Of a stretch of 37,196 nucleotides of DNA, positions 259 through 26,813 are shown piece after piece. A program made the position numbers and the translations under genes. The stretch comes from Candidatus Micrarchaeia archaeon (GTDB taxonomy: Archaea; Micrarchaeota; Micrarchaeia; Anstonellales; J096): contig JBGQMB010000004.1 of the NCBI GenBank assembly GCA_041500405.1, positions 1 through 37,196 of the forward strand. Reading direction: 5' to 3'. How positions within the stretch are numbered: position 1 is the first letter of the stretch; each line of letters opens with the position of its first letter. The notes under the pieces are model-generated. The model had not been told where the DNA came from, made no database searches, and was given only the letters and a program-made list of their open reading frames with translations.

Positions 259-352
259 AATAATAACAGAAATGATCTATTTTTAAATATGATTAGACCT
301 CGTTGCCAATCCCCACACCCTTTAAAATCCCTCCAGTATCTATAAGTTGCAT

Positions 353-1987
353 ATGCAACCTGACCAAACCCCCAATGTTGGCGAATCCCCCGACGCTGTT
401 GCAGGCGGAACAAACAAGGACTTCAAGGAGCATTCTGTTGCGGAATTTTTCAAAAAGAACAGGCACATGCTCGGCTTCTCGGGAAAAACAAGGAGCCTCA
501 CCACCATAATTCACGAATATGTGACCAACTCGCTTGACGCATGCGACGAGCATGGAATCCTCCCAAACATAAAGATAGAGATGTCTGAAAGGGGGGAGGA
601 CAAATATCATGTCGTTGTGTCGGACAACGGCCCCGGCATGCCGAGGTCCATCATAGGAAAGGCGCTGGGAAAGATGCTTGCAGGGACAAAATTCCACCGC
701 TATATGCAGCAAAGGGGCCAGCAGGGGATTGGGGCGACTGGATGCACAATGTACGCGCAGATAACGACCGGAAAGCCCATCCATATCATCTCCGCGCACA
801 GGGGAAAGGCCATATTATGCGACCTTAAGGTTGACCTTAAGACAAACGAGCCCATTATGACCAATATAACGGAACAGGACGCGCCCTACAATGGGCTTAC
901 AATAGAGGCCGATTTCGCAGACGTGAAGTTTGACAAAGGCACTTACGGCGTATTGGAATATGTCAAAAGGACCGCAATAGCGAATCCGCACGCGCAGATA
1001 GAGCTGATAGCGCCTGGAAATGAGCATTACCCGTTCCCAAGGTCGGTTGACGCTGTCCCGAAAAAGCCAAAGGAGGTCCAGCCCCACCCGATGGGCATAG
1101 GCGCATATGACCTGCAGGCAATGGCGCATGGCGCAAAGGAAAACAGGCTATCGGCATTCCTGGTTGAAAACTTCGCAAGATTCTCCCAGCAGAAAATAAA
1201 CGAGCTTAAGGAGCTGACGGATGTCGATTTCGCGAAAAACCCGAAACAGCTCACATGGGACGAGGCGGAAAAGCTGGTCAATGCGATAAAGAAGCTGAAA
1301 TGGATAGCGCCTCCGCTGGACTCTGTCATACCGATAGGCAAGGCGCAGATAGAAAAGAGCATGAAAAGCGTGCTGGACCCGGAGTTCATGAACGTTGTTG
1401 AAAGGGACATAAAGATTTATTCCGGCGGAATACCGTTTGCGGTCGAGGTCGGCATCGCGTTCGGCGGAAAGATAAACGAGAAAAAGGGCGAGATATACAG
1501 GTACGCAAACAGGACGCCGCTGATGTTCGACTCGTCCGGATGCGCGATAACGGAATCCGTAAAGGAGATAGAATGGAGAAGGTACGGCATTGACATGGAC
1601 AATGATCCGGTGGTAATTTTTGTAAACGTCTCAAGCGTGCACATCCCGTATATGGGCGCCGGAAAGCAGGCGATATCGGACATAGACGACGTAAAGCAGG
1701 AGATAAAGAACGCGATAATGGAGTGCGCAAGGGGCATAAAGCTCAGCCTTGGAAGGAAAAGGAAAGCCGGCGACATTGAAAAGAAGAAGGCCGCGCTTAT
1801 GAGATATATAGGCAGGCTGAGCGAGGACCTTGCGAACCTTTCCGAGGAAAGCAGCAAGGAGGAGCTGGAGAAAAAGATACGGGAAATGATAGAAACCAGG
1901 TATGCGTCGGTGTTTGAAAATGACGAGCCTGAGCCTGAAAAGCAGGAACCGGCAGGGGATGTGGACAATGGAGAAAAAGAAGAGTGA
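353..1987 (+). CDS. top6B: DNA topoisomerase VI subunit B
   Basis: GHKL motifs HEYVTNSLDAC, VSDNGPGM and RGQQGIG; N-terminal SVAEFFKKNRHMLGF; transducer RYANRTPL and GAGKQAI. ATG at 353 is preferred because TTTAAAAT lies at 321-328. Confidence 0.96.
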   Translation: MQPDQTPNVGESPDAVAGGTNKDFKEHSVAEFFKKNRHMLGFSGKTRSLTTIIHEYVTNSLDACDEHGILPNIKIEMSERGEDKYHVVVSDNGPGMPRSIIGKALGKMLAGTKFHRYMQQRGQQGIGATGCTMYAQITTGKPIHIISAHRGKAILCDLKVDLKTNEPIMTNITEQDAPYNGLTIEADFADVKFDKGTYGVLEYVKRTAIANPHAQIELIAPGNEHYPFPRSVDAVPKKPKEVQPHPMGIGAYDLQAMAHGAKENRLSAFLVENFARFSQQKINELKELTDVDFAKNPKQLTWDEAEKLVNAIKKLKWIAPPLDSVIPIGKAQIEKSMKSVLDPEFMNVVERDIKIYSGGIPFAVEVGIAFGGKINEKKGEIYRYANRTPLMFDSSGCAITESVKEIEWRRYGIDMDNDPVVIFVNVSSVHIPYMGAGKQAISDIDDVKQEIKNAIMECARGIKLSLGRKRKAGDIEKKKAALMRYIGRLSEDLANLSEESSKEELEKKIREMIETRYASVFENDEPEPEKQEPAGDVDNGEKEE

Positions 1988-3086
1988 AAAAAGCGAGGAC
2001 CAGAAGGCCTACGACGGCCTTGTCTCCCTTGGAAAGGGCATGGTCACGGAAGTCAGGGGGGGCGCAACGCCAACGTTCGAGACCTCGCTAAGGGGCAGGT
2101 CCAACATCCTGTTCGACAAGGACGGATACCTGAAGCTCGGGGACAAGACCGAGACAAGGAAATTCATGAACCTCAGCCAGGCAAGGACGTTCATGCAGAC
2201 AATAAGCATAGCGAACAAGCTCAAGCAGTTCATAAGGCAGGGATTGCACACGTCCATCAGGGGCCTTTACTACCAATTGAAGTTTAGTTTGGGGGAGGAT
2301 TTGGACGAAAGCCTGTTTGAGGAGCAGAGCGAATCAAACGTCCTTGTGGAGGACCTTGAAGTTTCCATGGGCTCCAAAAGGGAGGACTTCCATCTGACGA
2401 CGGACAGGAAGGGCGTGCTTGCAGGAAACATAAAGCTCATAGACAGGTTCGGCGGGGAGGAAATAACCATAGACGGGACAAAGCAGGGAAGGAGCGGGTG
2501 GATGATACCGAGCGACGTTGACAACGGCATGGAGATAGAGAGCGTGAAGGCAGACTACGTTTTAGTCGTTGAAAAGGACGCGCTCTGGCAAAGGCTCAAC
2601 GAGGACAGGTTCTGGCAAAAGGAAAAGGCGATACTGATAACGCCAAAAGGCCAGAGCTCAAGGGGAACAAGGAGGCTGATAAGGAAGCTCGCGGACAAGG
2701 GGCTCCCTGTTTATGTTTTCACTGACTGCGACGCCTGGGGATGGTACATTTACTGGACCTTGAAGACAGGGTCCATGAACCTCGCATACCTTGGAAAGGA
2801 GTTCAGCATACCGGAGTCAAGGTTCATAGGCGTTACGATGAGCGACATAGAAAGATACGACTTCCTGAAAAAGCTCACAATAAACGCAAAGGAGCTGGAC
2901 ATCAAGAGGGCAAGGGAGATGATGGGCTATCCGTGGATAGCGAAGCACCCTGAGTGGGTGAAGGAGCTGAAAAAGGTCCTTGACACAAAGAAGAAGATAG
3001 AGCAGGACGCATTGCAGGGGCAAAGATTAACTTTCGTCAGCGAGTACGTCAAGGACAAGATAGAGAACAACGATATGCTGCCGTGA
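1968..3086 (+). CDS. top6A: DNA topoisomerase VI subunit A
   Basis: SIRGLYY (catalytic Tyr), Toprim VVEKDA, KGQSSRGTR, FTDCDAWG and KIEQDAL. Overlaps the 3' end of top6B; start ATG at 1968. Confidence 0.96.
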   Translation: MEKKKSEKSEDQKAYDGLVSLGKGMVTEVRGGATPTFETSLRGRSNILFDKDGYLKLGDKTETRKFMNLSQARTFMQTISIANKLKQFIRQGLHTSIRGLYYQLKFSLGEDLDESLFEEQSESNVLVEDLEVSMGSKREDFHLTTDRKGVLAGNIKLIDRFGGEEITIDGTKQGRSGWMIPSDVDNGMEIESVKADYVLVVEKDALWQRLNEDRFWQKEKAILITPKGQSSRGTRRLIRKLADKGLPVYVFTDCDAWGWYIYWTLKTGSMNLAYLGKEFSIPESRFIGVTMSDIERYDFLKKLTINAKELDIKRAREMMGYPWIAKHPEWVKELKKVLDTKKKIEQDALQGQRLTFVSEYVKDKIENNDMLP

Positions 3087-4745: not shown

Positions 4746-7115
4746 TCAGTTGAGCTGCGCGCCAGGCGCGTAAATCTTTATTTTCGCGTCCATGGCGTTG
4801 TAATATGAGGAGCTGGCGCAGCCGCCGCACTCGTCTATCGCGTCAATGTAGATGGAGAGCGTGTCCATGCCGTACTGTATCTTTCCGTAGCTGCCCTTGA
4901 CCTTGCTGTAGAACGTCACCGGGTCCATATTCGGCTGGCCGCACACGCCGTACTGGTTCTTGTAGTCGCCGTCGGAGTTGCAGCACAGGACGCGGCCCAT
5001 ATTGTTCATCTTTTTGCAGTCCCCTCCCTTGTCGACATTGGGCCTGAAGTCCCTCCAAAGCTCGAGGTATGTGTCGCTGCTTGTGCCGCCGTCGTCAAGG
5101 CTATAGCCGTAATAAAGCTCCGCAGTGAACGCAACTGTCAGCGCGTCAAGGAGGTTCTGGTTGTTCTCGTCGGAAAACGACGCAACCTTCAGGGTTTCGC
5201 TGTTGGCCGTGACTGCGGAATATGCCGCAGGCAGGAAATTCCATGCGATCTTGTACGATGCAGCGCATATGCTGTCCGCGGCCACGAACGGGTTGAACTT
5301 CTCGCCGCCGCATGCCTTCACCTCGGCCGGCATCGCAAGCCCGAGCGAGGCGTACATGCTGCCAGGCAAATCGGTCGTCTGCATCATGCCGCTTGCGCAT
5401 ACTGTGTATTTCTGGTTGTCGCTAGGCGGGTCCGCCATTGACGAGACGCTGCACCCCGCGGCTGTTGCGGCCGTGGAGATGTCGGACTTCTTTATTATTT
5501 TTCCTGTGCAAAGGCCTGCGCTTAATTCAGGAAGGTAAGATATGGTGCAAGGATTGAAATCAGACTCCTTCTGCGCAATCGCCTTCAGGAGGTTGGTGTC
5601 TATGTCATAAAGGTCTCCGTAAAAATTAATCCTGTTTGCCGCATCTTCAGGTTTCTCGCAGTTTGAGGCCCTGAATACGCCCTTTATGTTCTTTAGGAAT
5701 GCCGATATGTTCTTGGAGTCGTATATCATGAAGCACGCCCTGCACTCATAGGTCTGTTTCTCACTGTCCCCAAAATTTATTTCGGCAAGCGGGACATAGT
5801 CGCCCGTGCTCTGCGTTCCGGCATAGGACATCGTGTTTTCAGGGATGAAGTCAAGGACCCCGCACTTGCCGATTGAAGACGTGTCCATTGCAAAGACCTG
5901 GAAGTTCCTGCCGCCGTAATAGTTCTGGCAAAGCGAGAACCACGCGGACGCCGCGCTCTGCCTCAGCGACGTGCTGGAATCCACGAATGAATTGTTTTCC
6001 GCAGGGTAGAAGAACGCCTCCGAGTAGAACGGCTCTGATGACATGCCCATAAGGCCGTTCTTGGACATCTCCGGTATGTCGTTGAACATCAGCCAGAGAA
6101 GCTTCCTTTCCTCAAGGTCGCTCCACCTGCATGCGCTCCTGTTGAGATTGACATAATACCAGAACGTCGGCTTCCCGTATTTCGCCCTTATTGCGTTTGT
6201 GGCCAGCTGGGCCTGCGAAACAAGGTAGGATCCTGAGCCGCACTTTGAGTCCTCGTTTGAATCAATTAGATAGTCGCTGTCAATGCCGAATCCGACAAAA
6301 TCAACTTTGTCCAGCGCGTGGGATGCGCTGAGCGCGTCAAGGATGCGTGTGCCGTTCGGCCCGTTCCTTATTGACAGGCCGACCTTGCAGTTGGAGCATG
6401 CGGCGCTTATCCCCCTTATTTGGCTGGCTATATTCTCTATGTTTGTGTCGCTGGATTCTGGGTTCATCTCTGTCGCTATCATGACCGGCCCGAGACCGGA
6501 CATCTGGCGCGCGAAGCCTCCCGCATTGTCTTTTCCAGGCACGGTTCCGTTGTTGTAAAGTATGTAGAGCGGGATGACGCTTTTGTCAAGGAAGCACGCG
6601 GCGCCGGTATATGACTTCGAGGAAAATGTGTATTTCTCTGCGTCAAGCGAGCGGACAAGCTTGACCGCATAGCGAAGCGAGTTGTTGCAGTACGTGTTCG
6701 CATTGTTGAAGTCGGCGAATGTCATGCCCTGGCCTATGCCAAATTCGCGAATATAATATGTAGAATCGTTCAGGTTCTTGGCTATTTCAGCCTTGTTCTC
6801 AAAGGTCACGTTCTGGAGCCAGCAGTTCCCGCCGATGAGCGACGCGTCCATCCATTTCCAGTAGCGCACGCTGTAATACATGAACTGCGCCCAGTTCACA
6901 AATGATTTTCGCGAGGCGTTCTGGCACAGCATTATGCTGCAGTTTCCGGCGTTTGCGTATTCCGTCAGGTTTGTAGCGTTCATTTTCGCGCTGACGGCTG
7001 TGTGGCTGTCGCTGAGATATTGCGCTGTGCTGCTCTCTATCATATCGCTAAGGCACCCTGAAAGCAGCGCAATTGCCGCCAAAATCAAGACCGCGAAAAA
7101 CTTTCCTTTTCCCAT
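4746..7115 (-). CDS. Secreted lipoprotein (789 aa) with a glycoside-hydrolase-like barrel and a lytic transglycosylase (SLT/GH23-like) domain
   Basis: Start reassigned to ATG 7115 (SD-like AGGGGT upstream): MGKGKFFAVLILAAIALLSGC is a signal peptide plus lipobox. SLT motifs: YDIDTNLLKAIAQKESDFNP, ASGMMQ and FNPFVAADSICAASYKI. Cys-rich with many N-x-S/T sequons. Confidence 0.75.
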   Translation of the reverse strand: MGKGKFFAVLILAAIALLSGCLSDMIESSTAQYLSDSHTAVSAKMNATNLTEYANAGNCSIMLCQNASRKSFVNWAQFMYYSVRYWKWMDASLIGGNCWLQNVTFENKAEIAKNLNDSTYYIREFGIGQGMTFADFNNANTYCNNSLRYAVKLVRSLDAEKYTFSSKSYTGAACFLDKSVIPLYILYNNGTVPGKDNAGGFARQMSGLGPVMIATEMNPESSDTNIENIASQIRGISAACSNCKVGLSIRNGPNGTRILDALSASHALDKVDFVGFGIDSDYLIDSNEDSKCGSGSYLVSQAQLATNAIRAKYGKPTFWYYVNLNRSACRWSDLEERKLLWLMFNDIPEMSKNGLMGMSSEPFYSEAFFYPAENNSFVDSSTSLRQSAASAWFSLCQNYYGGRNFQVFAMDTSSIGKCGVLDFIPENTMSYAGTQSTGDYVPLAEINFGDSEKQTYECRACFMIYDSKNISAFLKNIKGVFRASNCEKPEDAANRINFYGDLYDIDTNLLKAIAQKESDFNPCTISYLPELSAGLCTGKIIKKSDISTAATAAGCSVSSMADPPSDNQKYTVCASGMMQTTDLPGSMYASLGLAMPAEVKACGGEKFNPFVAADSICAASYKIAWNFLPAAYSAVTANSETLKVASFSDENNQNLLDALTVAFTAELYYGYSLDDGGTSSDTYLELWRDFRPNVDKGGDCKKMNNMGRVLCCNSDGDYKNQYGVCGQPNMDPVTFYSKVKGSYGKIQYGMDTLSIYIDAIDECGGCASSSYYNAMDAKIKIYAPGAQLN

Positions 7116-7126
7116 GCAAAAACCCC

Positions 7127-10100
7127 TTACTTGTATTTCACCTTGCACTGCGGGCACGAGCCGGCCCCCCTCCTGATAAGCGCGCCGCAATAGCTGCATT
7201 TCATCATGTAGTTGGTGCCTCCGAGCGTGACCGCCGCCGCATTGAGCGGCGCGGAAAACCCTTCCGCGAAGAAGTCCGCGGTCGCACCGCCGAACTTCTT
7301 GGCCGCCCCCAGCCACCCTTCCTCTTGAACTGAGTCCCGTGCATTCATGTATAGGTTATTCAGGATCTTCTCCGTCTTGCCGGATATGACGTTGGTCGCT
7401 ATGAACGGGTTTATCATCGCGCCCATGAAGCTCTTTGACGGCGAATACATCTCCGCCTCCTGCTCCCTCTTGAAATAGTCTTCCACGATGTTGTTCTGCC
7501 TCTTCCTTATGCTGAGCGAGGCGTATGCCAGGTCTTCGGTGTCCGCCGTGCGCACGGAGCTTACCTTGGGCTCCTTGTATTCCCATTTGTACGTGTAGCT
7601 GCCCTGCTCCCCGCTCTTTTTCTGCTCCAGCTCCCTGGCCTCGTAGAGATTGTACACCTTCCACATCTCGCCCGGCTCGATTACGCGCTTGCCGGTTCCG
7701 AACATGTAATGCTCCCTGCCGGGTATGTCAGCCGGCGTCGCAAACTCGTTTGAGTACCAATAGAAGTGCGAGGACACCCTTTTCGCGCTATGGGTTTCCT
7801 CCTTGTCCGCTATCGCGCTCCCCTCGTTCGGGTTTACTGACGACATCCATTTGCCCACAGGGGCCATGAACTTCTTGAATGAATCCCACTTCTTTTCGCC
7901 GCCGGTCCTCTTCCAGGCGTCGAATCCCTCCGACGTTTCCGTGCCTGTCCAGAAGTTGGTCATTGCGCGGCTCCTGTCCCTTACCAGGTCGTTTGCGAAC
8001 TTCCCTGCATAGTAAACGCCGGGGATTGTGGCCAGGGCCGGGCCCCCGACAAGCGCGGCGATGCCCGCCAGGCCTACCTTTGAGCCTGAGCCTAGGTTGG
8101 CGAGCATTCCTGAAAGCGTGTATCCGATGTTGAGGCCCTGCTGGGGAAGGAATTGATCCATAGGGCCGCGTATTGTGCCCGGCTCCACGAATCTCCCATA
8201 CAGCATGGACCCCTCCTTATCGCGGTGGTGTATTGAATCAAGGCCCATGTCCTTGAACGCCCTTTTCACGTCGTCGTCAGCCTCGTACCTTATCTCATAT
8301 GGGTTGGCGACGCCCTTTGACATCTTCTCCTCAAAGCGGACTGCGTGCGCAAACGCCTGCTGCAAAGGCAGGTGCGCCCTTATCGTTTCGCGGGAAAGCC
8401 AGTCAAGCGCCCAATTCAGGCCCGAAGGATAGCTCTCTATGTTCTCCCTCCTGTATGCCTGCCACATCTGGTCTATCCAGGACTGCTTTAGCGTGGAAAC
8501 GCCTGCGTTTAGCGACGCCGCCGTAAGGCCCTCCCTGTAGTATGGATATGCCCCCCCATATATCGGATGCACATCCCTTGTCATGAACCACTCGAATGCG
8601 ATGAACGACTTCTGCAGGTCGCCCATCCTTAGCCTTATGAATTCCTCCGCGTCCTGCCTGGATTTGAATTGCTTCAGGAAGTCTATTTGGCTTTCGTCCG
8701 CCCCCCTTTCCATTCGTGCAAGTATTTTGTTGAGCGCCCCGTACTCGTCCAGCACAGCGAAGCCTTCCCTAAGTATCCTGTTCTCCTGGTTCTCTATGCC
8801 GAACAGGTCCTCGCTGCCTATCTGGAGCGTCTTCGTGTAAAGTACGGTCTCGTGGAATTTCGTGAACTTGTCTATGGCCTGCTCCTTGCCGTAAAGGAGC
8901 AGCCCTGAAAGCGCCTCTGCCGGGTTGCCGCTCCTGAACACGCCCTTCCAGGCTTCCATTCTCTGCTGGTCTATATCCGCAACCGTTCCGACCTTCACGT
9001 TGGCCATTCTGTTCAGCAGCGGCTCGAAGTCCCTTGTCTTCTCGGCATACCTGAATGCGGCTATCGCAACCTGCTGCGGGTCGGACACTGTTGTCCTCAG
9101 CCTTTCCAGGCCGGCCTTGAGCGCCTCTTTGTCCGCTCCGCCCGCCAGGTCTTTCATGAACTGGATTACGGACTTGTCTGTTATTCTGTATGTGTCCGCA
9201 AGCTCGCCCAGCGACTTGTATATGTTGCCGTGGTCGCCGATGTAGCTTATCCTCATGTTGAGGACCTTTTCGGTGCTGGCCCTTGCCATGTTCTGGAACG
9301 AAAGAGATGCTTTCTCCTTATCCCCAAGGTCCATGTTGGCGCCAACGAGCAGTTTTTTCAGGTCGCTGTTCATTGAGCTGGGATCCGCCCTCATCGGCAA
9401 TATGTCGCCGAGCTCGCCGTTCATGAACAGGAAGTCCTTGCTGCCCTTGACAGATTTGAGCGTGACCAGCCTGTTGTCCTGGTCCATCATGAAGTTGAAC
9501 ATCGCGGCGTCGAAGACGCGGCTGCGGTTGGCCTTTAAGTAGTCGCTGATTTCCTCTTTTGAGGCGGAGTATTCCTTGCCCTCCTTGGCGCTCCTGTCCT
9601 CGTCCTTCTTTCTGGCTATTATCTGCCTCCTGGCCTCGTCTTCCATCTCCTTGTCGGGCTTGAACTTGCCTCCGCTCATGATATAGTCAAGCATGTGGAT
9701 ATACCGCGTGCCGAACGTAAGCATGTTTTTGGACTGGAGCGTCGTTGACCTGTCGCTTATCAGCGTGAAGAGCCTGTCGTCGTTCTCGGCGCCCTTTCCG
9801 ACGAGCTGCGCCATGAGCGCGTTGGCCACGGACTCGCCGGTGCTTCCGGCTTTCTTGAACATGCCCTTTTCCCTCCTGTAGAACACATCCCAGAGGCCCA
9901 CGAACTTGAGCGTCTCCTCTGTCTCCCCAAGGTCCGAGAACCTCCTTGAGGTGGGGACAAATGATGTCTTTACAGCGAACGGGTCCTCGTCCTTGTCGTT
10001 TTTGTCATTTCTCAAGTATGCCCAGTGCCTGCCGTCAAGATAGGTGTGCGCAGTGTGCCTTGCGCCTGTCCCGAAGAGGTATGTCTTGACGTCATTCTTG

Positions 10101-12715
10101 AAAATGTCCTTGTATTTCTCCCCTAGCACGAAGTTGTTGACAAGATTGTCCTTCTGTGCCTGGCTTAAGGCCTGGCTTTTATCTATCTCCTTCTTGAGCG
10201 CCCTTGCGTTGAAGAACATCAGGTAGTTGTTGTCTTTCTCAAGGTACTTCAGCTCTTTCGGTATCTCTTTCCTGTTAATCATGTCCTTTGCGATTTTGTT
10301 GGCGAACGCCATCGCCACGGAAATGCTTTCCGCCATCTCGTTTATCTTGTCCTGCGGGATGAGGAAATTCTCCCTGTGGCCCTTCATCCACGGGAACATC
10401 TTCATCTTCTCCTTGGGCAGGTGCGAGACCGAAGACGCGTTTGCCCTTTCCAGTATCGCCTTTATGTCTTCCTTGCCTGAGGGAAGGAAGCCATACGTGT
10501 TGTTTATCTTCTCAAGATAGACCAGGCCAAACGCGTTGGAAAGGTTTGCCTTGCCCTTGTTGGACTTTGCAAGGCTGTAAAACATGTCCGCAAGCATGTT
10601 CTGGGAAGCGTCCTTTGATTCCATTATCTTGTCGTTGAAAACGGTCCTTCTGATGCCGCTTTTCGCCGCCAGTGAATCAAGCGCGCTGTTCAGCTTCCAG
10701 ACAACAAGGCCCTTCTTTATCGCGCTGTCCTTGAGTTCGCCTGAGCCGAGGCTGGCATATGCGCCATTTATGGCTTTACACCTTTCCATGAAATAATCGT
10801 ATTCCGCCCCTTTTCCCTTGAATATTTCCTTTGCGAGTTTTTTGTAATCGCTGTGTTTTTTCGCCAGCGTCATGCTGGACTCTTCCTTGTTTATTATCTC
10901 GGCTATACTCTGGAGCGTCCCGCTGTTTTGCTTGTCGAAATCTTTCATCTTCTTCAGAATGGACTGCAGCATCCCGACGTTGCCCGCGAGCTTCTTGAGG
11001 TTGGAGAGGTCGGCGCCCTTGAGCGCATTCAGCAGCGCCAGCTCGTCCCTGGTCATGCCCACGCTCTTGGCAAGCTTGCTGTCGTTTAGGATCTTGCCCA
11101 TCATGCCCTTAAGCAGTATCGCGGAGCTCTCCCTGTCGTACGCCTCCAGCATCCTGTCCGCGTTTCCGCCCTCGCGGAGCGAGACCTTGCCCGCGAAGCT
11201 GATGTCCATATTTCTCCTTAATTCGTTGCTCAGCCTGCCCATGACGTCGCCAAGGTCCTTGGCGCTGAGCCCAAGTATCTCCCTTGCCCACCTTTGCGCC
11301 CTTACGGATTCCTTCCATTTTCCGATATTCGGCAGGAAGGCGAAATATGTCGCAAAAATCGGCCTTATTATGTACTGCCCTCCGTTGAGCCTGCCGATAT
11401 ACTGGTTAAGCGGCTCGTGGAGCCTCCTGAAAATAGCCTCTGATGCGCCCGTGTCAGCCTTGACCTTTTCAAGCATCTTTTCAAAGGCGCCCACAGCCTT
11501 GTTTTCTGGGGCGATGGCCTTGGCGACCCTTGCGGCGTATTTCATGGGGTCCAATATGACAGCCATCAGGCTTCCCCTCTGCAGGCCGCCTATGACGCCC
11601 TTCACTATGCCGGCGTGCGGGCCGTACTGCGCCCTGACGTGGCTCTTTCCGTACTCCATTTTCTCCGCACCCATCCTGAACGTCTTCATCATCCTTAGGT
11701 ACTGATTTATGGAGTCCCTATCCTTTATGCCAAGCTTCAAGGAGATATGCTGTTGGAGGGGCCTGTATATGTCCAGCAGGGAGCTTTGGTAGGTAAGCCC
11801 ATTGCGCCTGAGGAACAGCTCCAGGTCTGCGCGCGTCATGCCGGCCAGCATCGCCACGCGCGCCAGGTTTCCGGCGTTCTTGTCCTTGAACGTGCCCGCC
11901 ACCTTTTCCATGTCCTTGCCGAGCTTGGTGTATTTCGTGATGTTCTTTATGGAGGCAATGATGGAGGTCGCGTCGCCGAACCTGCCGTGCCATCCGTATC
12001 CGCTCCACTTGAACCTCATCTGGTTGAGGTGGGGGAGCCTTGGCGAGGTGAAGTCAAAAAGGTAAAGCATGCCCTGGCCGCCCCTATAGTAGAACGCGCC
12101 GCCTATCAGCGCCATGAGTATGAGAATGGGTATGCAATATATGTTGTTTGATGGATTGGCAAGCTCCTGCAAAATTATGTTGCTTATCAGGGCAGGCGTC
12201 GCCTTTATGCCAAAGCAAACCTGCTCGGACTTCTCTGCAGTGGAATAGTCCCCTGGTGAGCTTGATTCCCCCCTGAATTCTGCCTTCAGCTCGGAGCAGG
12301 AATCCTTGTATTCGGAGCCGGGCTGGAAAGTGGCGATGCCGGAATACATCGTCCCTAGTGTTCCGTCCGAAAGCGTTACGGACGCTGGCGTGTCTGTTGT
12401 TCCGCTCCCAAGCAGCGTGAATTTGGAATCGCCAGATTTCTTTATGTAAAAATACACCTTGGCGTTTTGGAGCGAGGTCTGCTCGTATTGCCTTATGTTG
12501 AGCCCCGCTGTAGGGTCTGTCTTCATCCCGGTGTAATCATAATCTGACAGGGATTCTGTGTAAATGACTGAAAAGTTTACCTGTATATACGGCGCCCCGT
12601 TCTCTTCCCCAGTCGACGGGTACATGGATATTTCGGTTGTGGAGGCGGCGAATGCGATGGGCAGGGCTAGCAGCAGGGCTAAGATTATCCACAAACGCTT
12701 ACTAATTCCACCCAT
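7127..12715 (-). CDS. Giant membrane protein (1862 aa) with a signal peptide, TM helix and C-terminal zinc ribbon
   Basis: Start reassigned to ATG 12715 (TATA at about 12741-12750). Signal peptide MGGISKRLWIILALLLALPIAFA; TM IYCIPILILMALIGGAFYY; C-terminal CSYC-x9-CPQC. Confidence 0.85.
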   Translation of the reverse strand: MGGISKRLWIILALLLALPIAFAASTTEISMYPSTGEENGAPYIQVNFSVIYTESLSDYDYTGMKTDPTAGLNIRQYEQTSLQNAKVYFYIKKSGDSKFTLLGSGTTDTPASVTLSDGTLGTMYSGIATFQPGSEYKDSCSELKAEFRGESSSPGDYSTAEKSEQVCFGIKATPALISNIILQELANPSNNIYCIPILILMALIGGAFYYRGGQGMLYLFDFTSPRLPHLNQMRFKWSGYGWHGRFGDATSIIASIKNITKYTKLGKDMEKVAGTFKDKNAGNLARVAMLAGMTRADLELFLRRNGLTYQSSLLDIYRPLQQHISLKLGIKDRDSINQYLRMMKTFRMGAEKMEYGKSHVRAQYGPHAGIVKGVIGGLQRGSLMAVILDPMKYAARVAKAIAPENKAVGAFEKMLEKVKADTGASEAIFRRLHEPLNQYIGRLNGGQYIIRPIFATYFAFLPNIGKWKESVRAQRWAREILGLSAKDLGDVMGRLSNELRRNMDISFAGKVSLREGGNADRMLEAYDRESSAILLKGMMGKILNDSKLAKSVGMTRDELALLNALKGADLSNLKKLAGNVGMLQSILKKMKDFDKQNSGTLQSIAEIINKEESSMTLAKKHSDYKKLAKEIFKGKGAEYDYFMERCKAINGAYASLGSGELKDSAIKKGLVVWKLNSALDSLAAKSGIRRTVFNDKIMESKDASQNMLADMFYSLAKSNKGKANLSNAFGLVYLEKINNTYGFLPSGKEDIKAILERANASSVSHLPKEKMKMFPWMKGHRENFLIPQDKINEMAESISVAMAFANKIAKDMINRKEIPKELKYLEKDNNYLMFFNARALKKEIDKSQALSQAQKDNLVNNFVLGEKYKDIFKNDVKTYLFGTGARHTAHTYLDGRHWAYLRNDKNDKDEDPFAVKTSFVPTSRRFSDLGETEETLKFVGLWDVFYRREKGMFKKAGSTGESVANALMAQLVGKGAENDDRLFTLISDRSTTLQSKNMLTFGTRYIHMLDYIMSGGKFKPDKEMEDEARRQIIARKKDEDRSAKEGKEYSASKEEISDYLKANRSRVFDAAMFNFMMDQDNRLVTLKSVKGSKDFLFMNGELGDILPMRADPSSMNSDLKKLLVGANMDLGDKEKASLSFQNMARASTEKVLNMRISYIGDHGNIYKSLGELADTYRITDKSVIQFMKDLAGGADKEALKAGLERLRTTVSDPQQVAIAAFRYAEKTRDFEPLLNRMANVKVGTVADIDQQRMEAWKGVFRSGNPAEALSGLLLYGKEQAIDKFTKFHETVLYTKTLQIGSEDLFGIENQENRILREGFAVLDEYGALNKILARMERGADESQIDFLKQFKSRQDAEEFIRLRMGDLQKSFIAFEWFMTRDVHPIYGGAYPYYREGLTAASLNAGVSTLKQSWIDQMWQAYRRENIESYPSGLNWALDWLSRETIRAHLPLQQAFAHAVRFEEKMSKGVANPYEIRYEADDDVKRAFKDMGLDSIHHRDKEGSMLYGRFVEPGTIRGPMDQFLPQQGLNIGYTLSGMLANLGSGSKVGLAGIAALVGGPALATIPGVYYAGKFANDLVRDRSRAMTNFWTGTETSEGFDAWKRTGGEKKWDSFKKFMAPVGKWMSSVNPNEGSAIADKEETHSAKRVSSHFYWYSNEFATPADIPGREHYMFGTGKRVIEPGEMWKVYNLYEARELEQKKSGEQGSYTYKWEYKEPKVSSVRTADTEDLAYASLSIRKRQNNIVEDYFKREQEAEMYSPSKSFMGAMINPFIATNVISGKTEKILNNLYMNARDSVQEEGWLGAAKKFGGATADFFAEGFSAPLNAAAVTLGGTNYMMKCSYCGALIRRGAGSCPQCKVKYK

Positions 12716-12790
12716 TGAGTATATATTATCAGGGAAAGAGTTTTTATATATGTGCGTCGCCCCTGTGCAGTCGGACGGATTTAAAAATGA

Positions 12791-12830
12791 AAAAACGTGG
12801 CCAAAGGAACGGCAATGCACCCATGTTTTT
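12791..12830 (-). terminator. Inverted repeat just downstream of the 12829..14016 gene; possible terminator
   Basis: Arms AAAAACGTGG (12791-12800) and CCATGTTTTT (12821-12830), followed on the minus strand by a T-rich run. Confidence 0.35.
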
Positions 12831-14016
12831 AATGCGGCCCGCTTCTTTTACTCGCCTCTTGTTGTTGTTCCCAGTATCCTTTTTCTAAACGTTTTTTCTT
12901 AATGCGCTCATACTGCTTTTGCGTGTCTTCATTCAGATATGGCAAAATCTCGCTCGGAAGGGAAGTTTCAGATGATGTCTCTTTGAAGAGGGTCCAATGG
13001 TCCCAAGTGTGGCATCTTTTTTGGCGTTTATCTAGTGCATTGAAAATCCTGTTTGGCATGTCTTTCAGCTTGTGCTCGAAAATCGTCAAACAGTCGTCCA
13101 GAAACCTGTAACGATACTTGCCAAGGCGATTCAGCGATATGGGAAGCTCAAAACTGAAAGTGTATGGAGATGCGGTTGCCCAAGCATGGGCGTATCTGTA
13201 TAGCTGTTCTTCGGTCATGTTTGCGACAATAGCCTGTGGTATGCCACTCTCCGAGGATTTTTTGAATCCCTCAATCCTGGCATCTATATAGTCATATAAT
13301 TCTGTTTGGGACATTTTGGCGCATACGACCTTTGGTGCATTTTTGCCGTTTTCTGCGGCATCAGCAATATATGCTGCGATTATTTTGTTTAAGCGTTTGG
13401 AGTCAAGCGGCTGGTCCAGCTCTCCCTCGACCAGCTTATCCCAATAAGGCGGCTTTGCGGTTCCAGAGGAGTTTAAATAATGGCCAAGCAGGCGCCCGCG
13501 TTCCTTGGTCCTTTCGTCTCCGGAAAGGCGATTGTATCTCCTGTATTCCGTGCTGCATTCTTGCGCCCAGCGCCTTTTCTCCTCCAAGTCCCTTTTTTCT
13601 TCCAATTCCCTTTTGGCTCTTTCATTCTCCGCGGCCCTGGCTCTTTCTTTTCTTTGCTCTTTGCGGCGCTTGGACAGTCTGCTGACTGCCCACAGGAGGA
13701 TGACTGTCATGATGATTCCACCGAGGAGCGTTTCGTTTTTGTCTTCCTTGCTTTTGCTGGCAGCTTTCTTCCTTGGTGAGGCAACAGAAGTATGGGTTTT
13801 GTGCCGGGAAACGTGCAATCTTTTCTGTACAGGTTTTTGCTTGATTAAATGTTGGTTATAAGAATTTTCTAAAAGAGGTTCATTGGCGAAAGCTGGCTTG
13901 ACGGCCCCGAAAGGCAGGGTCAAGGCGGCGGACGTGATGCCGATGCCAAGGATTGAATGAATGAGGCGCCTTGCCTTGCTTTTTTCATTTATCCAAATCC
14001 GCTGCATCTGCTCCAT
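12829..14016 (-). CDS. Hypothetical membrane protein (signal peptide, TM helix, coiled coil)
   Basis: 395-aa ORF. Hydrophobic N-terminus ending AFA, TM LLGGIIMTVILLWAVS, then a charged coiled coil (KRRKEQRKERARAAENERAKRELEEK). Visibly more AT-rich than its neighbours. Confidence 0.75.
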   Translation of the reverse strand: MEQMQRIWINEKSKARRLIHSILGIGITSAALTLPFGAVKPAFANEPLLENSYNQHLIKQKPVQKRLHVSRHKTHTSVASPRKKAASKSKEDKNETLLGGIIMTVILLWAVSRLSKRRKEQRKERARAAENERAKRELEEKRDLEEKRRWAQECSTEYRRYNRLSGDERTKERGRLLGHYLNSSGTAKPPYWDKLVEGELDQPLDSKRLNKIIAAYIADAAENGKNAPKVVCAKMSQTELYDYIDARIEGFKKSSESGIPQAIVANMTEEQLYRYAHAWATASPYTFSFELPISLNRLGKYRYRFLDDCLTIFEHKLKDMPNRIFNALDKRQKRCHTWDHWTLFKETSSETSLPSEILPYLNEDTQKQYERIKKKRLEKGYWEQQQEASKRSGPH

Positions 14017-21894: not shown

Positions 21895-23133
21895 ATGAAA
21901 ATCATCTTCAAGACATATGGATGCACGCTCAACAGGGCGGACACGGAGATGATGGAAGCCATTGCAAGGCAGGGGAAGCACGAGATTGTGGAAAACGAGG
22001 ATGACGCGGATGTTGTTGTTGTCAATACGTGCACAGTCAAGCTCCCAACTGAAAACAAGATAATCAGCTACCTCAACGGGCTGAAGAAAAAAGGAAAGAC
22101 GTTTGTCATAGCAGGGTGCATGACTGTTGACAAGAAAATCCAAGATACATTCAACGCGCCCATGCTTGGCCCGTCTTCATTAAGGCACATAAACGAGGCC
22201 ATAAGCGACGCTGCTGAGGGGCGGCGCAGCCATTATGGCGTATTGGAAACAAAGGACTTCCTGCCAAAGGGATTCACGCCGCCCATCGCCAGGATCGCGA
22301 TATGCGACGGGTGCACGGACAAATGCCATTTTTGCCAATCAAGGCTTGCAAGGCCGAAACTGATAAGCCAAGGTATGAAGTCGATAAAGGTCAGCCTCGA
22401 AAAGGCGCTTGGCCTGGGGTGCAGGGAGATAGAGCTTAGCGGATGCGACACAGGCGCATATGGCCTGGACATCGGGACAGATGTTACTGAACTGCTAAAG
22501 GAATTATGCAGGACAAACGGGGACTTCAGGATAAGGCTGGGCATGGCGAACCCGCACCATGTGAAAAGGCTTCTTGGAAAGCTCGTGAACGTTTACAAAA
22601 ACCCGAAGATGTTCAAATTCCTGCACGCATCTGTCCAGTCAGGAAGCGAGAAGGTCGCCCGCGAGATGGGGCGCGGGCATTCTGTTGCGGATTTTGAGTC
22701 CATCATCAAGATATTGCGGAGGGAAATCCCCGATGTAATGGTCGAGACTGACATTATAGTGGGATATCCGACCGAAACCGAGGAGGATTTCAACGAAACC
22801 ATGGCCATGCTTGAACGGGTGAGGCCGGACATTGTCAACCTTTCGAAATTCACGCCAAGGCGGGGAACGGTTGCGGCAGAAATGAAGCAGCTTCCGTCCG
22901 AGACGATAAAGCAAAGAAGCGTGAAAGTGGCGGACCTGCTGAAAAATCAGGGCCTGGAAAACAATGTGAAGTTCCTGGGAAAGAAAATCAATATCCTTGT
23001 CACTGAAGAGGGCAAAGGCAGGGCGAACAGCTACAAGCAGGTCGCGTTCATCGGAAAGGCGGAATTGGGAAGCAGGATAGATGTTGCAATAACCGGATTC
23101 ACGCACACGACGCTTTTGGGAAAGAAGATTTAG
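21895..23133 (+). CDS. tRNA t6A37 methylthiotransferase (archaeal MtaB/CDKAL1-type, MiaB family)
   Basis: UPF0004 motifs TYGCTLN, VNTCTVK and AGC; radical SAM CTDKCHFC; VQSGS; TDIIVGYPTETEEDF; C-terminal TRAM-like region. Start ATG 21895. Confidence 0.92.
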   Translation: MKIIFKTYGCTLNRADTEMMEAIARQGKHEIVENEDDADVVVVNTCTVKLPTENKIISYLNGLKKKGKTFVIAGCMTVDKKIQDTFNAPMLGPSSLRHINEAISDAAEGRRSHYGVLETKDFLPKGFTPPIARIAICDGCTDKCHFCQSRLARPKLISQGMKSIKVSLEKALGLGCREIELSGCDTGAYGLDIGTDVTELLKELCRTNGDFRIRLGMANPHHVKRLLGKLVNVYKNPKMFKFLHASVQSGSEKVAREMGRGHSVADFESIIKILRREIPDVMVETDIIVGYPTETEEDFNETMAMLERVRPDIVNLSKFTPRRGTVAAEMKQLPSETIKQRSVKVADLLKNQGLENNVKFLGKKINILVTEEGKGRANSYKQVAFIGKAELGSRIDVAITGFTHTTLLGKKI

Positions 23134-23600
23134 CCGCTGCTTGGCTTGTCGTACAGGTTTATCGACATTGACACGGCGTTCCCAAGCTGGTCAATGACTA
23201 TCCTTGCTGTCCTTACCTGGGAGATGGAGTTCTGCATCGCCATGTTGCAGTCCGATGGGTGAAAAGTCGTCCTTACCGGGCCGCGAATCTGGATGCAGAT
23301 GCCATACGGGGACGTGTCGTCAACGTTCTTTATCCTGGCGTTCATGTCCGTCAGGGGGTCCATGCCCGTTTCCGCCATTATCCTGTTGGATATTGCGCTG
23401 TCCATTATGCCATATACAGGGTCCTCGCTCATCAGGAGCGCGGAAACCCTTATCATTTCCTTGTCTATTATGTCCTTCTTGTAATCATTTGTTGCCTGCG
23501 AGAACAGCAGGAAGCTGAAGAACGAGAATATCGCAACCACGAAGATTATCGCGGCGATTATCGCGTCAAAGCTGAACGATTGCCCTTTAAGGTTCTTCAT
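23130..23600 (-). CDS. Pilin-like protein with a class III signal peptide
   Basis: MKNLKG/QSFSFDAIIAAIIFVVAIFSFF. ATGA overlap with the upstream gene. Confidence 0.8.
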   Translation of the reverse strand: MKNLKGQSFSFDAIIAAIIFVVAIFSFFSFLLFSQATNDYKKDIIDKEMIRVSALLMSEDPVYGIMDSAISNRIMAETGMDPLTDMNARIKNVDDTSPYGICIQIRGPVRTTFHPSDCNMAMQNSISQVRTARIVIDQLGNAVSMSINLYDKPSSG

Positions 23601-24043
23601 TCGCACGCACCCCCTTCCTTCTTGGCGAAGCACAAACCATCGCCCCTCATGCTAAGGTAAACAGTCTGGCCTGCATGGAGAGTGACCTTTTTGCCTTCGA
23701 CCAGGCCGTAATCTATTGTGCTGGACGAGAAGTGCGTCAAGAACGAGTCAGCGACCGTTACGTCCACTAGCCTGTATTGTTCGTCAATGGTAACGTTGTA
23801 GTCAAAGCCGTTTATGCTGCCCGGAAGGTCGAACGACGTCCTGAAGTCCGGCCCCATGGAGTAAGCGACAGTCGCGAAAGACATTACCTTGCTTCCGACT
23901 ATGGATGCCATGATATAGTCGTTTCTCGAGACCTCATACCTGGACATCTCGGAAAACAGGAAGATGACTATCACGAAAGCCAGCATGAAAACTGAGGTGT
24001 ACACAAGGAATTCAAGCGAAACCTGCCCTTTTCTCCTTTCCAT
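23597..24043 (-). CDS. Type IV pilin-like protein with a class III signal peptide
   Basis: MERRKG/QVSLEFLVYTSVFMLAFVIVIFLF (Gln +1, Glu +5). Confidence 0.88.
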   Translation of the reverse strand: MERRKGQVSLEFLVYTSVFMLAFVIVIFLFSEMSRYEVSRNDYIMASIVGSKVMSFATVAYSMGPDFRTSFDLPGSINGFDYNVTIDEQYRLVDVTVADSFLTHFSSSTIDYGLVEGKKVTLHAGQTVYLSMRGDGLCFAKKEGGACE

Positions 24044-24044
24044 G

Positions 24045-24551
24045 TCAATCCCTCGCGTCCTCCATCTTCAGCGATATGTACTGCGAAGACATTCCCTCTT
24101 CCATGATTTCGCAGCTTATCTTTATCCTCACTATGCCGCCGTTCCTTATGACATTTGTCGTAGACCCCGAAACCGGCTGTATATCCAGTCTCTTGTAATC
24201 TTCCGTGTTGCTGTTCACCACGTTTATCGGGGTCGAAAACGAATATTCCTTTCCTTCAAGCGTGTAGTTGGTTATCAGCATCGCCCTTTCCCCCGCCTTG
24301 GCGAACGTCACGTTGTCAAGCACCGCAGGATAGTATATGGAGACGTTCCTGTCTCCAGGGCAGAAGGCGTACGCCTCCTCCAGGTTCCTTTTCAGCACGT
24401 CGGTGTCCTCGTAAAGCTGCTTTTGGTAAAAGTCGCTGCTGTGCGTCGTTGAAATGCTGAGCATGAAAACTATGAGCGGTATCATGATTACCATGAATGA
24501 GGACACCATGGCAATGTTCTCAACAGAGGACTGCCCTTTCCTGCTTGCCAT
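24045..24551 (-). CDS. Type IV pilin-like protein with a class III signal peptide
   Basis: MASRKG/QSSVENIAMVSSFMVIMIPLIVFML; SD GGAGGT upstream. Confidence 0.85.
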   Translation of the reverse strand: MASRKGQSSVENIAMVSSFMVIMIPLIVFMLSISTTHSSDFYQKQLYEDTDVLKRNLEEAYAFCPGDRNVSIYYPAVLDNVTFAKAGERAMLITNYTLEGKEYSFSTPINVVNSNTEDYKRLDIQPVSGSTTNVIRNGGIVRIKISCEIMEEGMSSQYISLKMEDARD

Positions 24552-24552
24552 G

Positions 24553-26163: not shown

Positions 26164-26690
26164 ATGAACACCACCAGTCTCATGAGGGTCGTGTCCACGC
26201 CCCACACAGGCAGATACTCCTGCAGGTTGCACGGAACGTTGCTGCCCTTGCACGTCGTATATCCAAACGGGTTGTAGTTTGTGTCGCTGCCGCTGCGTTC
26301 CTCAATGACTGTTGAAACCGTCACTATCGCGTCGCTGCTCTGCACGCCTATGCCTGCTTTTTTGTAGTCGCCCACAGAGCATCCCTCAATTGCGGACCAT
26401 TTGTTATTTTTGTAGTCAAGAGCCAGGAGCGCATATCCGTAGCCTGGCGGAAGGTTTTGCCTTATGATTTCGGCGCATGCGTCTTCCCTGCCGTTGTTGT
26501 TCACTATGTTGGCAAGCAAAATCGGGGACGCGGCTATCGCCCTTATGCCGTCCGATGAAAGCAGCTTGAGCTGGTATGCCACCGTGTACTGGTAGGTGGA
26601 AAGGCCAAGCCCGAATATCAGCATATTCATCGCCATGGCTATAATCATCAGTGAGATGAACGCGTCCAGCGAGTATATAAATGCCTTCAT
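26160..26690 (-). CDS. Pilin-like protein with a class III-type signal peptide
   Basis: MKA/FIYSLDAFISLMIIAMAMNMLIFG. First gene of the operon, with a TATA-like TATTAAATA about 25 nt upstream. Confidence 0.8.
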   Translation of the reverse strand: MKAFIYSLDAFISLMIIAMAMNMLIFGLGLSTYQYTVAYQLKLLSSDGIRAIAASPILLANIVNNNGREDACAEIIRQNLPPGYGYALLALDYKNNKWSAIEGCSVGDYKKAGIGVQSSDAIVTVSTVIEERSGSDTNYNPFGYTTCKGSNVPCNLQEYLPVWGVDTTLMRLVVFI

Positions 26691-26813
26691 CGGTATATTT
26701 TGGCCCTGAAAGGTATTTAATACTATGCCCAAACAACCCAATATTGCAACCGTATTAGCAACGGAGCATAACCGTTTGGTTTTTAAGGATTTGCGGGAAC
26801 GTTGTCCTTACAT

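Follow-up and report, generated by a model that had tools for sequence, protein, structure and literature searches.

The window analysed here, a stretch of 37,196 nucleotides (nt) from a Candidatus Micrarchaeia archaeon, is contig C4 of a 0.92-Mb genome (60 contigs, 86% complete) and carries two adjacent genes on the minus strand, the first encoding a giant membrane protein of 1862 amino acids (aa) and the second a lipoprotein of 789 aa with a region resembling the SLT family of transglycosylases. Both genes are real, each with hundreds of homologues, and together they form a conserved, tightly coupled pair. The phylum is named Microcaldota in the protein atlas, and close public homologues are labelled Candidatus Micrarchaeota. 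Working labels are used below for families (f), genera (g), genomes (G), contigs (C) and loci (L). The features of the two genes are as follows.

~12740..12753, minus strand: TATA-like box, AT-rich, ACATATATAAAAAC, about 31 nt before the giant's ATG, read from the sequence
7127..12715, minus strand: giant membrane protein gene, 1862 aa, open reading frame (ORF) from ATG at 12715, stop TAA
12641..12715, minus strand: predicted signal peptide of the giant, residues 1-25, cleavage at ...PIAFA/AS, hydrophobic segment 8-26
12143..12640, minus strand: predicted exported N-terminal domain, residues 26-191, Cys- and sequon-rich across the family
12032..12142, minus strand: transmembrane helix, residues 192-214, and juxtamembrane motif LFDFTSPRLP, residues 219-228, from the alignment
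8696..12028, minus strand: variable Lys/Arg-rich region, predicted cytoplasmic and by composition probably helical, residues ~230-1340
7376..8608, minus strand: conserved C-terminal block, residues ~1370-1780, from the family alignment
8003..8074, minus strand: Gly/Ala-rich hydrophobic stretch, residues 1548-1571, conserved in the genus only
7145..7198, minus strand: CxxC-x10-CxxC zinc-ribbon motif, residues 1840-1857, read from the sequence
7116..7126, minus strand: spacer of 11 nt, GGGGTTTTTGC, from the giant's TAA to the lipoprotein's ATG
4746..7115, minus strand: surface lipoprotein gene, 789 aa, Cys-rich, ORF from ATG
7053..7067, minus strand: lipobox LLSGC, residues 17-21, G20 and C21 invariant in 16 orthologues
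5676..7052, minus strand: N-terminal Cys-rich domain of the lipoprotein, residues ~22-480, defined by conserved cysteines
4836..5627, minus strand: SLT/GH23-like region with long insertions, residues ~497-760, Pfam SLT E 4.2e-4
5550-5582, minus strand: SLT motif I, AIAQK-E517-S, from the alignment
5379-5399, minus strand: SLT motif II, ASGMMQ, residues 574-579, from the alignment

A previous description of this DNA, made from the letters alone (the sequence-only reading), had reported co-oriented genes with an 11-nt gap behind one upstream TATA, and a giant with a signal peptide, an exported domain of about 170 aa, a transmembrane helix, the LFDFTSPRLP motif and a Lys/Arg-rich bulk. All of these are present, while the terminal motif had been spaced as CxxC-x9-CxxC and the Shine-Dalgarno (SD) sequence placed before the second gene amounts to a G4 run and is weak; the cysteine spacing is in fact x10. 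The TATA-like box is the putative promoter of both genes; since it lies so close to the giant's ATG, a very short leader is implied, and TTTAAA or TTTATA boxes stand at equal distance upstream in most giant orthologues. The spacer holds a run of five T, a possible weak termination signal in archaea, so that transcription of the two genes as one unit is likely, though not certain. Of the 10 sequencing runs that contain this DNA, none is listed as an RNA data set. Directly upstream of the TATA box in giants of f9, some 40-70 nt before the ATG (loci L034-L038, L019), we also observed an operator-like, GAACGCGAAACGCGAAC-like repeat, which is not present upstream of the window's giant.

The coupling of the two genes extends across their own order and beyond it. 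Among 20 loci picked by a giant match alone, which span f6, f9 and six other families (f10, f18, f19, f21, f26, f32), the lipoprotein gene lies directly downstream on the same strand in 19, and the twentieth ends at a contig end; the proposal that the neighbourhood of the pair is conserved thus holds, the homologues being linked. In near relatives, 20 loci were picked by a match to either gene, and in 13 of them the giant immediately precedes the lipoprotein. Taking the first ATG as the start, the gap between the two ORFs has a median of 5.5 nt over 32 loci; seven of these overlap by 4 nt, 31 do not exceed 186 nt, and the one outlier contains an assembly gap.

A profile made from an alignment of 12 giants (A1) was used on 301 sampled genomes of the phylum, and profile searches detected the giant in 131 and the lipoprotein in 126 of them. 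The giant is near-universal in its own order (f9 64/65, f6 22/23, f1 10/13) and occurs in nine families of other orders; the profile search did not detect it in f13 (0/75), f14 (0/54), f16 (0/7) or f17 (0/15), and the lipoprotein likewise went undetected in f13 and f14 (0/129 genomes). At family level, 17 families have both genes, 12 have neither, and one is discordant (f15, with weak giant matches only). Within the order the pair is single-copy with conserved local synteny, and the genes flanking it, which vary by lineage, are of the housekeeping kind (tRNA synthetases, SecDF, MCM, UvrC, TopoVI). The pair is chromosomal and vertically inherited across orders. Identity to two relatives in the genus is 61% and 43% for the giant and 68% and 50% for the lipoprotein, against 96% and 85% for the ATPase introduced below, and on these values the pair evolves far faster than the ATPase. 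Genus g5 (loci L017 and L018; G017 and G015) has no recognisable giant. There, a co-oriented gene of 495-565 aa that fits no recognised family directly adjoins the lipoprotein gene, with an overlap in G017, and may have replaced the giant or be what is left of it.

The giant itself has no Pfam or NCBIfam domain match. Pfam Zn_ribbon_3 (zinc ribbon PF13248/PF13240) reaches E 0.0044 and 16.9 bits against it, under the cut-off of 27; the 12-giant profile found nothing under E 0.06 among PDB sequences, an ESM Atlas search with the whole giant gave no usable match, and no coiled-coil, cytoskeletal or structural maintenance of chromosomes (SMC)-like family matched. In these Pfam, NCBIfam, PDB-sequence and atlas searches, the protein resolves into no known family, an outcome in line with the sequence-only reading. 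Outside the genus, a single-sequence search with the giant matched only the N-terminal domain (15/41 genomes); an all-against-all comparison joins 13 giants into one fast-diverging family; and word-indexed protein searches reached close relatives alone, five for the giant's C-terminus and eight for the lipoprotein, any names being mostly 'hypothetical protein'. One giant relative bears the label 'beta-galactosidase beta subunit', which no data here support. To judge by these comparisons, the giant and the lipoprotein belong to fast-diverging, unnamed families of the Micrarchaeota (Microcaldota).

Searching 1.84 billion cluster representatives with a profile of the giant's first 300 residues gave 466 matches at E<=1e-3, of which 68 reach E<=1e-30; among the best 150, 114 reach at least 1300 aa (median 1670), and the match lies invariably at the N-terminus. 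The exported N-terminal domain is the best-conserved block of the family. The juxtamembrane motif that follows has the family consensus NPLxLFD(I/F)T(T/S)PRLP and then basic residues; it was found in 108 of the 150 best representatives, D221 and P225 of the giant are invariant (alignment A6), and C194 is among the conserved positions. Between families, the middle ~1000 residues align poorly; the K+R content of the giant is 14.1%, and self-BLAST found no internal repeats. The C-terminal block emerged as the second conserved block in genome searches with the giant profile and contains an MRDPR-like motif (R1380, D1381), a GYHTGQ-like motif, GYPS, PG1665-1666, R1739 and E1753. The late Gly/Ala-rich hydrophobic stretch, previously set beside hydrophobic hairpins, is indeed present, but as a feature of the genus and not of the family. 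The zinc-ribbon motif is carried by 14 of 28 full-length giant orthologues and 42 of the 114 large representatives. A Walker A motif is absent in the 13 giants checked, and a loose pattern for it, present in 16 of the 114, occurs at about chance level by a rough estimate.

Topology was approached through sequence-based statistics on 27 giants, which share a signal peptide, a head of ~170 aa, one transmembrane helix and then 1200-2000 aa, with no second conserved hydrophobic or transmembrane segment after that helix. The density of N-glycosylation sequons is 1.77 per 100 aa for the head and 0.40 for the remaining sequence (4.4-fold), that of Cys residues 2.82 and 0.27 (10-fold), and the residues after the helix carry net positive charge. 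These distributions place the head outside, and indicate that only ~166 aa of the window's giant are exposed while ~1650 aa are cytoplasmic. A cytoplasmic bulk fits the terminal zinc ribbon and does not fit a tape-measure or pore-forming role, the analogy drawn in the sequence-only reading.

The lipoprotein has 27 Cys residues and 12 N-x-S/T sequons; about 10 invariant cysteines, together with the Gly-Cys of the lipobox, are common to 16 orthologues. Its N-terminal Cys-rich domain (~450 residues) has no Pfam or NCBIfam match, and Pfam SLT (PF01464) is the sole family found for the protein. The motifs of an SLT lipoprotein are in place, as had been claimed, whereas the score, 20.3 bits, falls just under the cut-off of 21.3; the orthologue in G031 is above it with 24.5 bits, and the SLT profile recognises 6 of the 16 aligned sequences at E<=0.01. 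The best match of the lipoprotein profile among PDB sequences, a weak one, is the transglycosylase EtgA of a type III secretion system (T3SS; 4xp8, E 0.036), followed with weaker E-values by two EtgA or lytic-transglycosylase chains. Motifs I and II are separated by an insertion of ~55 residues, and the catalytic Glu column holds Glu in 25 of 36 orthologues. Where a giant gene is adjacent, 23 of 29 lipoproteins keep this residue, and where none is, 2 of 7 do, a split that, since the sampled genomes are related, is to be read as a pattern and not as a test. The SLT/GH23 family-1 site is divergent yet apparently intact, and the protein may be catalytically active on a glycan substrate. The middle of its N-terminal domain (profile positions ~195-418) recurs in separate frames of 1700-2800 aa in f21, f26 and f30 (G187:C4:15575-16261, G287:C1:53661-54344, G117:C1:270666-271343, G081:C17:4522-5160, G228:C60:11893-12552).

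The sequence-only reading had also noted that no ATPase was present, which holds for the window, where no VirB4/CedB-type ATPase is encoded; the genome, however, has a CedB/VirB4-like ATPase operon and two six-paralogue arrays on other contigs. Neighbourhoods in relatives tie both the ATPase and the arrays to the pair. The array consists of six paralogous polytopic membrane proteins of 300-570 aa, which contain the motif LPxGxxLRxFxxTRxxGxxLIA and end in LGxxxxxxLxKLI. Array members adjoin the pair in 15 of 33 giant-bearing loci, in five families (f1, f6, f8, f12, f21) and three different arrangements, and in G005 and G081 they share its strand. In the source genome the two arrays lie at C22:5741-13332 and at C2:45855-51957, the latter running on into C43:23-5192, a junction made by matching overlapping protein ends (loci L032, L033). 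Behind the C2/C43 array comes a co-oriented lipoprotein gene that encodes at least 1222 aa before the contig ends and has no Pfam match. With 266 of 301 genomes, including 75/75 in f13 and 53/54 in f14, the paralogue family has a wider distribution than the pair; these tallies include the unpublished genomes G061 and G216, without which the f13 and f14 values are 74/74 and 52/53, and no conclusion depends on these two genomes alone. The small genes upstream of the arrays have no NCBIfam match.

A structural model of a paralogue (36 sequences; predicted local distance difference test score, pLDDT, 72; predicted template-modelling score, pTM, 0.65) was compared with 48,161 chains; R388 TrwI/VirB6 came first and was the only chain with Z>=8 (Z 8.1, root-mean-square deviation (rmsd) 6.6 A over 222 of 261 residues), a Z of about 8 lying within the chance range for unrelated helical proteins. 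A second structural comparison put VirB6 entries at ranks 1, 2 and 4, with overall Z values of 8.1-8.4 and rmsd of 6.4-6.8 A over 217-227 residues. Foldseek of the model against the PDB gave nothing at E<=0.001 (E 0.73), and a language-model search pointed, below threshold, to a 'CedA1 domain' cluster (score 0.88). ATP synthase subunit a, the sole PDB-sequence profile match of the paralogues (E 0.021), was judged compositional.

The ATPase, at C8:15814-17394, is the only AAA_10/HerA-type gene of the source genome and belongs to a five-gene operon (C8:12186-18242, minus strand; locus L054:4187-10243) encoding a 279-aa membrane protein, the 526-aa CedB/VirB4/HerA-like ATPase and proteins of 144, 232 and 829 aa, the 144-aa protein weakly matching the CD3337/EF1877 mobilome membrane family (E 2.4e-4). 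Pfam matches of the ATPase are DUF87/HerA, AAA_10 and P-loop_TraG (34.3 bits, cut-off 25.8). Its NCBIfam matches are CedB (9.3e-20), VirB4 of integrative and conjugative elements (2.8e-19), VirB4-like CD1110 (2.8e-18), CedD (4e-18) and HerA (3.4e-14), all with scores far under the equivalog cut-offs (70.8 vs 700 bits), and an f13 orthologue ranks these families much alike. PDB sequences matched were HerA 4d2i (3e-10) and VirB4 4ag5 (3e-7), and the CagE_TrbE_VirB N-domain had no match in the protein.

The ATPase occurs in 41/41 near relatives at 54-96% identity and in 134 of 151 sampled genomes (the latter a tally that includes the unpublished G061). Its family-level pattern is that of the paralogues; in f17, too, both occur in the same two genomes. 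It adjoins the array in f13, f14 and f15. In 16 of 17 f13/f14 loci picked by the ATPase, six paralogues, two membrane proteins of ~277 aa and an ATPase of ~505 aa stand on one strand, together with a ~243-aa gene and three further genes; in the seventeenth the array is present and the ATPase has an inner stop. Three f15 loci resemble this operon, and one f18 locus lacks the array. The ATPase operon adjoins the lipoprotein gene in G007; as a general neighbour of the pair the ATPase was rejected, being adjacent only there and, in the other relatives compared, on other contigs or far away. The best reading of array and ATPase is a diverged machine resembling, and perhaps belonging to, the type IV secretion systems (T4SS) or the Ced system.

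Against this background we tentatively favour, as somewhat short of probable, the explanation that the pair is a lineage-specific accessory of this chromosomal T4SS/Ced-like machine of the Micrarchaeota. One transcription unit would yield a membrane-spanning pair. The lipoprotein would be exported, lipid-anchored and disulfide-bonded, and would act on or bind the surface glycan layer. Beside it, the giant would present a small glycosylated head outside and cross the membrane with one helix; inside the cell would follow a long, variable helical arm, the conserved C-terminal block and often the zinc ribbon. The machine itself would comprise the six VirB6-like polytopic paralogues and the CedB/VirB4-like ATPase, with the lipoprotein filling the role of specialised transglycosylases of the VirB1/EtgA type and the giant tethering or controlling it from the cytoplasmic side. 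The two proteins would presumably be in physical contact; a complex prediction for lipoprotein residues 22-789 and giant residues 25-191 (interface score ipSAE 0.00 in both runs) speaks neither for nor against binding. The pair may accordingly contribute to a transfer machine or to contact with other cells.

Several observations weigh against this accessory role and should be set beside it. The f13 and f14 families have the complete array-ATPase operon with the pair undetected in all 129 genomes; keeping the whole machine without it, they show the pair to be dispensable for the core machine. In the source genome the pair (C4), the arrays (C22, C2/C43) and the ATPase operon (C8) are on separate contigs, in f9 no array was found near the giant in nine giant-bearing loci, and the adjacency of pair and array seen elsewhere could be inherited synteny, related genomes not being independent samples. 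The lipoprotein has no adjacent giant in 7 of the 20 near-relative loci (genera g2, g5 and g6, and G034, in which the giant sits on another contig than the lipoprotein). Eleven of 36 lipoproteins no longer have the catalytic Glu, and murein, the target of this type of enzyme, is not known from archaea. The VirB6 link is weak on the structural scores given above, and hhalign assigned the paralogues a probability of 0.2% against R388 TrwI alone and 0.16% against an 11-sequence VirB6 profile, whose homologues were taken from plasmid records, a TrwI locus search having given only 2 loci. Finally, an AlphaFold2 model of giant residues 1281-1862 (27 sequences; pLDDT 47.3, pTM 0.27) did not resolve the fold of the C-terminal block.

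The chief rival to an accessory role is an autonomous envelope module, in which the giant would control or position the hydrolase for remodelling of the cell's own surface layer, growth or division, with no tie to the machine; the FtsEX-type control of bacterial wall hydrolases offers an analogy. The pair does stand as a unit of its own behind a separate TATA-like box among changing housekeeping neighbours, single-copy and near-universal in its order (f9 64/65, f6 22/23). It is absent from f13 and f14 despite their full machine, and no array is nearby in any of the nine f9 loci. However, such independence does not sit well with the array adjacency in five families and three arrangements, nor with the ATPase operon beside the lipoprotein gene in G007, and neither an ATPase nor any other signalling domain is recognisable in the giant. 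We regard an autonomous module as rather unlikely, if still a serious contender.

A more ambitious form of the transfer hypothesis, which we consider distinctly doubtful, would make the pair that part of an intercellular transfer machine of the Micrarchaeota, undescribed, derived from a T4SS and fixed in the chromosome, which cuts at the surface and docks in the cytoplasm. If so, the lipoprotein would breach or hold on to the wall of another cell; as enzymes of the SLT type target murein, that partner might be a bacterium. The giant would connect this site across the membrane with cytoplasmic cargo or with the CedB/VirB4-like motor, and genome-reduced archaea could thereby import DNA or other macromolecules. 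Host contact or penetration, as the sequence-only reading had proposed, is a conjecture.

The giant could also be a membrane-anchored cytoskeleton or scaffold for shape, division or, through the zinc ribbon, anchoring of the chromosome, with the lipoprotein as a landmark whose SLT domain mainly binds glycan. Its ~1650 cytoplasmic residues, helix-favouring and K/R-rich, would suit such a role, as would a dispensable zinc ribbon (14/28) and the loss of the catalytic Glu in 11 of 36 lipoproteins that keep their Cys framework. On the other hand, 23 of the 29 lipoproteins that adjoin a giant keep the Glu-Ser and GLMQ motifs, searches matched no coiled-coil, SMC-like or cytoskeletal family, and the cytoplasmic part diverges very fast (genus identity 43-61% for the giant vs 85-96% for the ATPase). 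A scaffold role therefore seems improbable.

Phage tape-measure proteins with lysozyme or SLT domains are long and helix-rich, and it was this pattern, a long helical protein adjoining an SLT enzyme, that had suggested an extracellular or membrane-inserting tape measure or pore former penetrating a host envelope together with the SLT enzyme. The Gly/Ala hydrophobic stretch of the genus would fit such a protein, and SLT proteins of DPANN archaea have been proposed, in the accessible parts of two reports, to act on bacterial walls (PMC8204110, PMC5864196). The topology signals, however, leave only ~166 aa outside, the hydrophobic stretch is not conserved, the window has no phage or tail genes, and the pair is chromosomal and vertically inherited across orders. 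Unlike a tape measure, the giant is predicted to be membrane-anchored and cytoplasmic, is the product of a universal chromosomal gene without a tail module, and leaves the SLT domain to a separate lipoprotein. We judge this explanation very improbable. Although an SLT domain and T4SS-like partners are typical of mobile elements, we give almost no credence to an origin as the remains of a virus, plasmid or integrated conjugative element, given the housekeeping neighbours, the flat base composition, a near-universal, single-copy presence in the order with conserved local synteny, and the 31 scanned ORFs of the window, none of which matched an integrase, capsid or relaxase family.

The immediate surroundings of the pair in the window are of housekeeping character (topoisomerase VI A and B, primase PriS/PriL, RNase HII), with a DnaG-like Toprim protein and a P-type ATPase as further neighbours by Pfam; the base composition of the region is flat, and the scan of the 31 ORFs revealed no phage families. 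The topoisomerase VI genes (window 347-3086, Pfam) lie near the lipoprotein gene, as they also do in G005, G009, G026 and G040 (loci L011, L014, L019 and L029; by eye, from protein ends), which suggests an old local synteny. Directly upstream of the giant, at 12829-14016 on the minus strand, is a 395-aa ORF that is K/R/E-rich and has two hydrophobic segments. It matches no family and was missing from the four near relatives G001, G002, G004 and G005; it was rejected as a third member of the module and is a lineage-specific insertion between the giant and its earlier upstream neighbour. Farther away, at 23130-26741 on the minus strand, five consecutive co-oriented ORFs (167, 148, 171, 566 and 193 aa) have no Pfam match.

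The pair, near-universal in one large order of the Micrarchaeota and found in several sister families, joins a wall-cutting domain of bacterial type, in an organism without such a wall, to a family of 1500-2300-aa proteins lacking known relatives. It thus bears on how DPANN archaea attach to and draw material from other cells, and on whether some Micrarchaeota interact with bacteria. We found no published description of the pair or of the array, subscription journals and supplements lying outside the search; the pair is real and conserved and, within the literature searched, undescribed in print. What had been proposed as an undescribed envelope-bridging system of DPANN archaea stands as the idea of a membrane-spanning pair, whereas the mechanism suggested for it was largely wrong; the envelope-bridging module gains a link to a conjugation-like machine, in whose service it may function.

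Several known systems can be compared with the pair. SLT-domain surface proteins of DPANN archaea have been noted in passing, with the proposal of an action on bacterial walls, in reports whose accessible parts treat single proteins and give no giant operon and no link to an array or ATPase (PMC8204110, PMC5864196). The lipoprotein shares the E-S and G-L/M-M-Q motifs with the specialised transglycosylases VirB1 (T4SS) and EtgA (T3SS of enteropathogenic Escherichia coli), and its gene stands beside T4SS-like machine genes in several relatives. In contrast to these enzymes, it belongs to an archaeal host without murein, has 789 aa with an extra Cys-rich domain of ~450 aa and insertions inside the SLT core, is paired with a giant membrane protein, has lost the catalytic Glu in 11 of 36 orthologues and scores at the borderline in Pfam.

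The SPEARE proteins of the Nanohaloarchaeota are likewise giant single-pass membrane proteins of DPANN archaea, described in the accessible part of the report as a proposed T4SS-like apparatus for host interaction with an extracellular bulk of ~75 Ig-like domains and a cytoplasmic VirB4/TraG-like ATPase tail (PMC10266531). The Micrarchaeota giant differs in having an ectodomain of only ~166 aa and 1650 predicted cytoplasmic residues without a P-loop or known domain. Patescibacteria, according to the portion of the literature available, retain a chromosomal T4SS (PMC12102498). Ced of the Sulfolobales and Ted of the Thermoproteales are DNA importers and domesticated T4SS, and as far as the accessible parts of the reports go, no described component of either resembles the giant or the SLT lipoprotein (PMC9905601, PMC11868833). 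As outlined in those parts, the likeness lies in the machine itself: that of the Micrarchaeota is also chromosomal and vertically inherited, with a CedB/VirB4-like ATPase and polytopic VirB6-like proteins, the latter as six fixed paralogues where Ced and Ted have one or two CedA/CedE.

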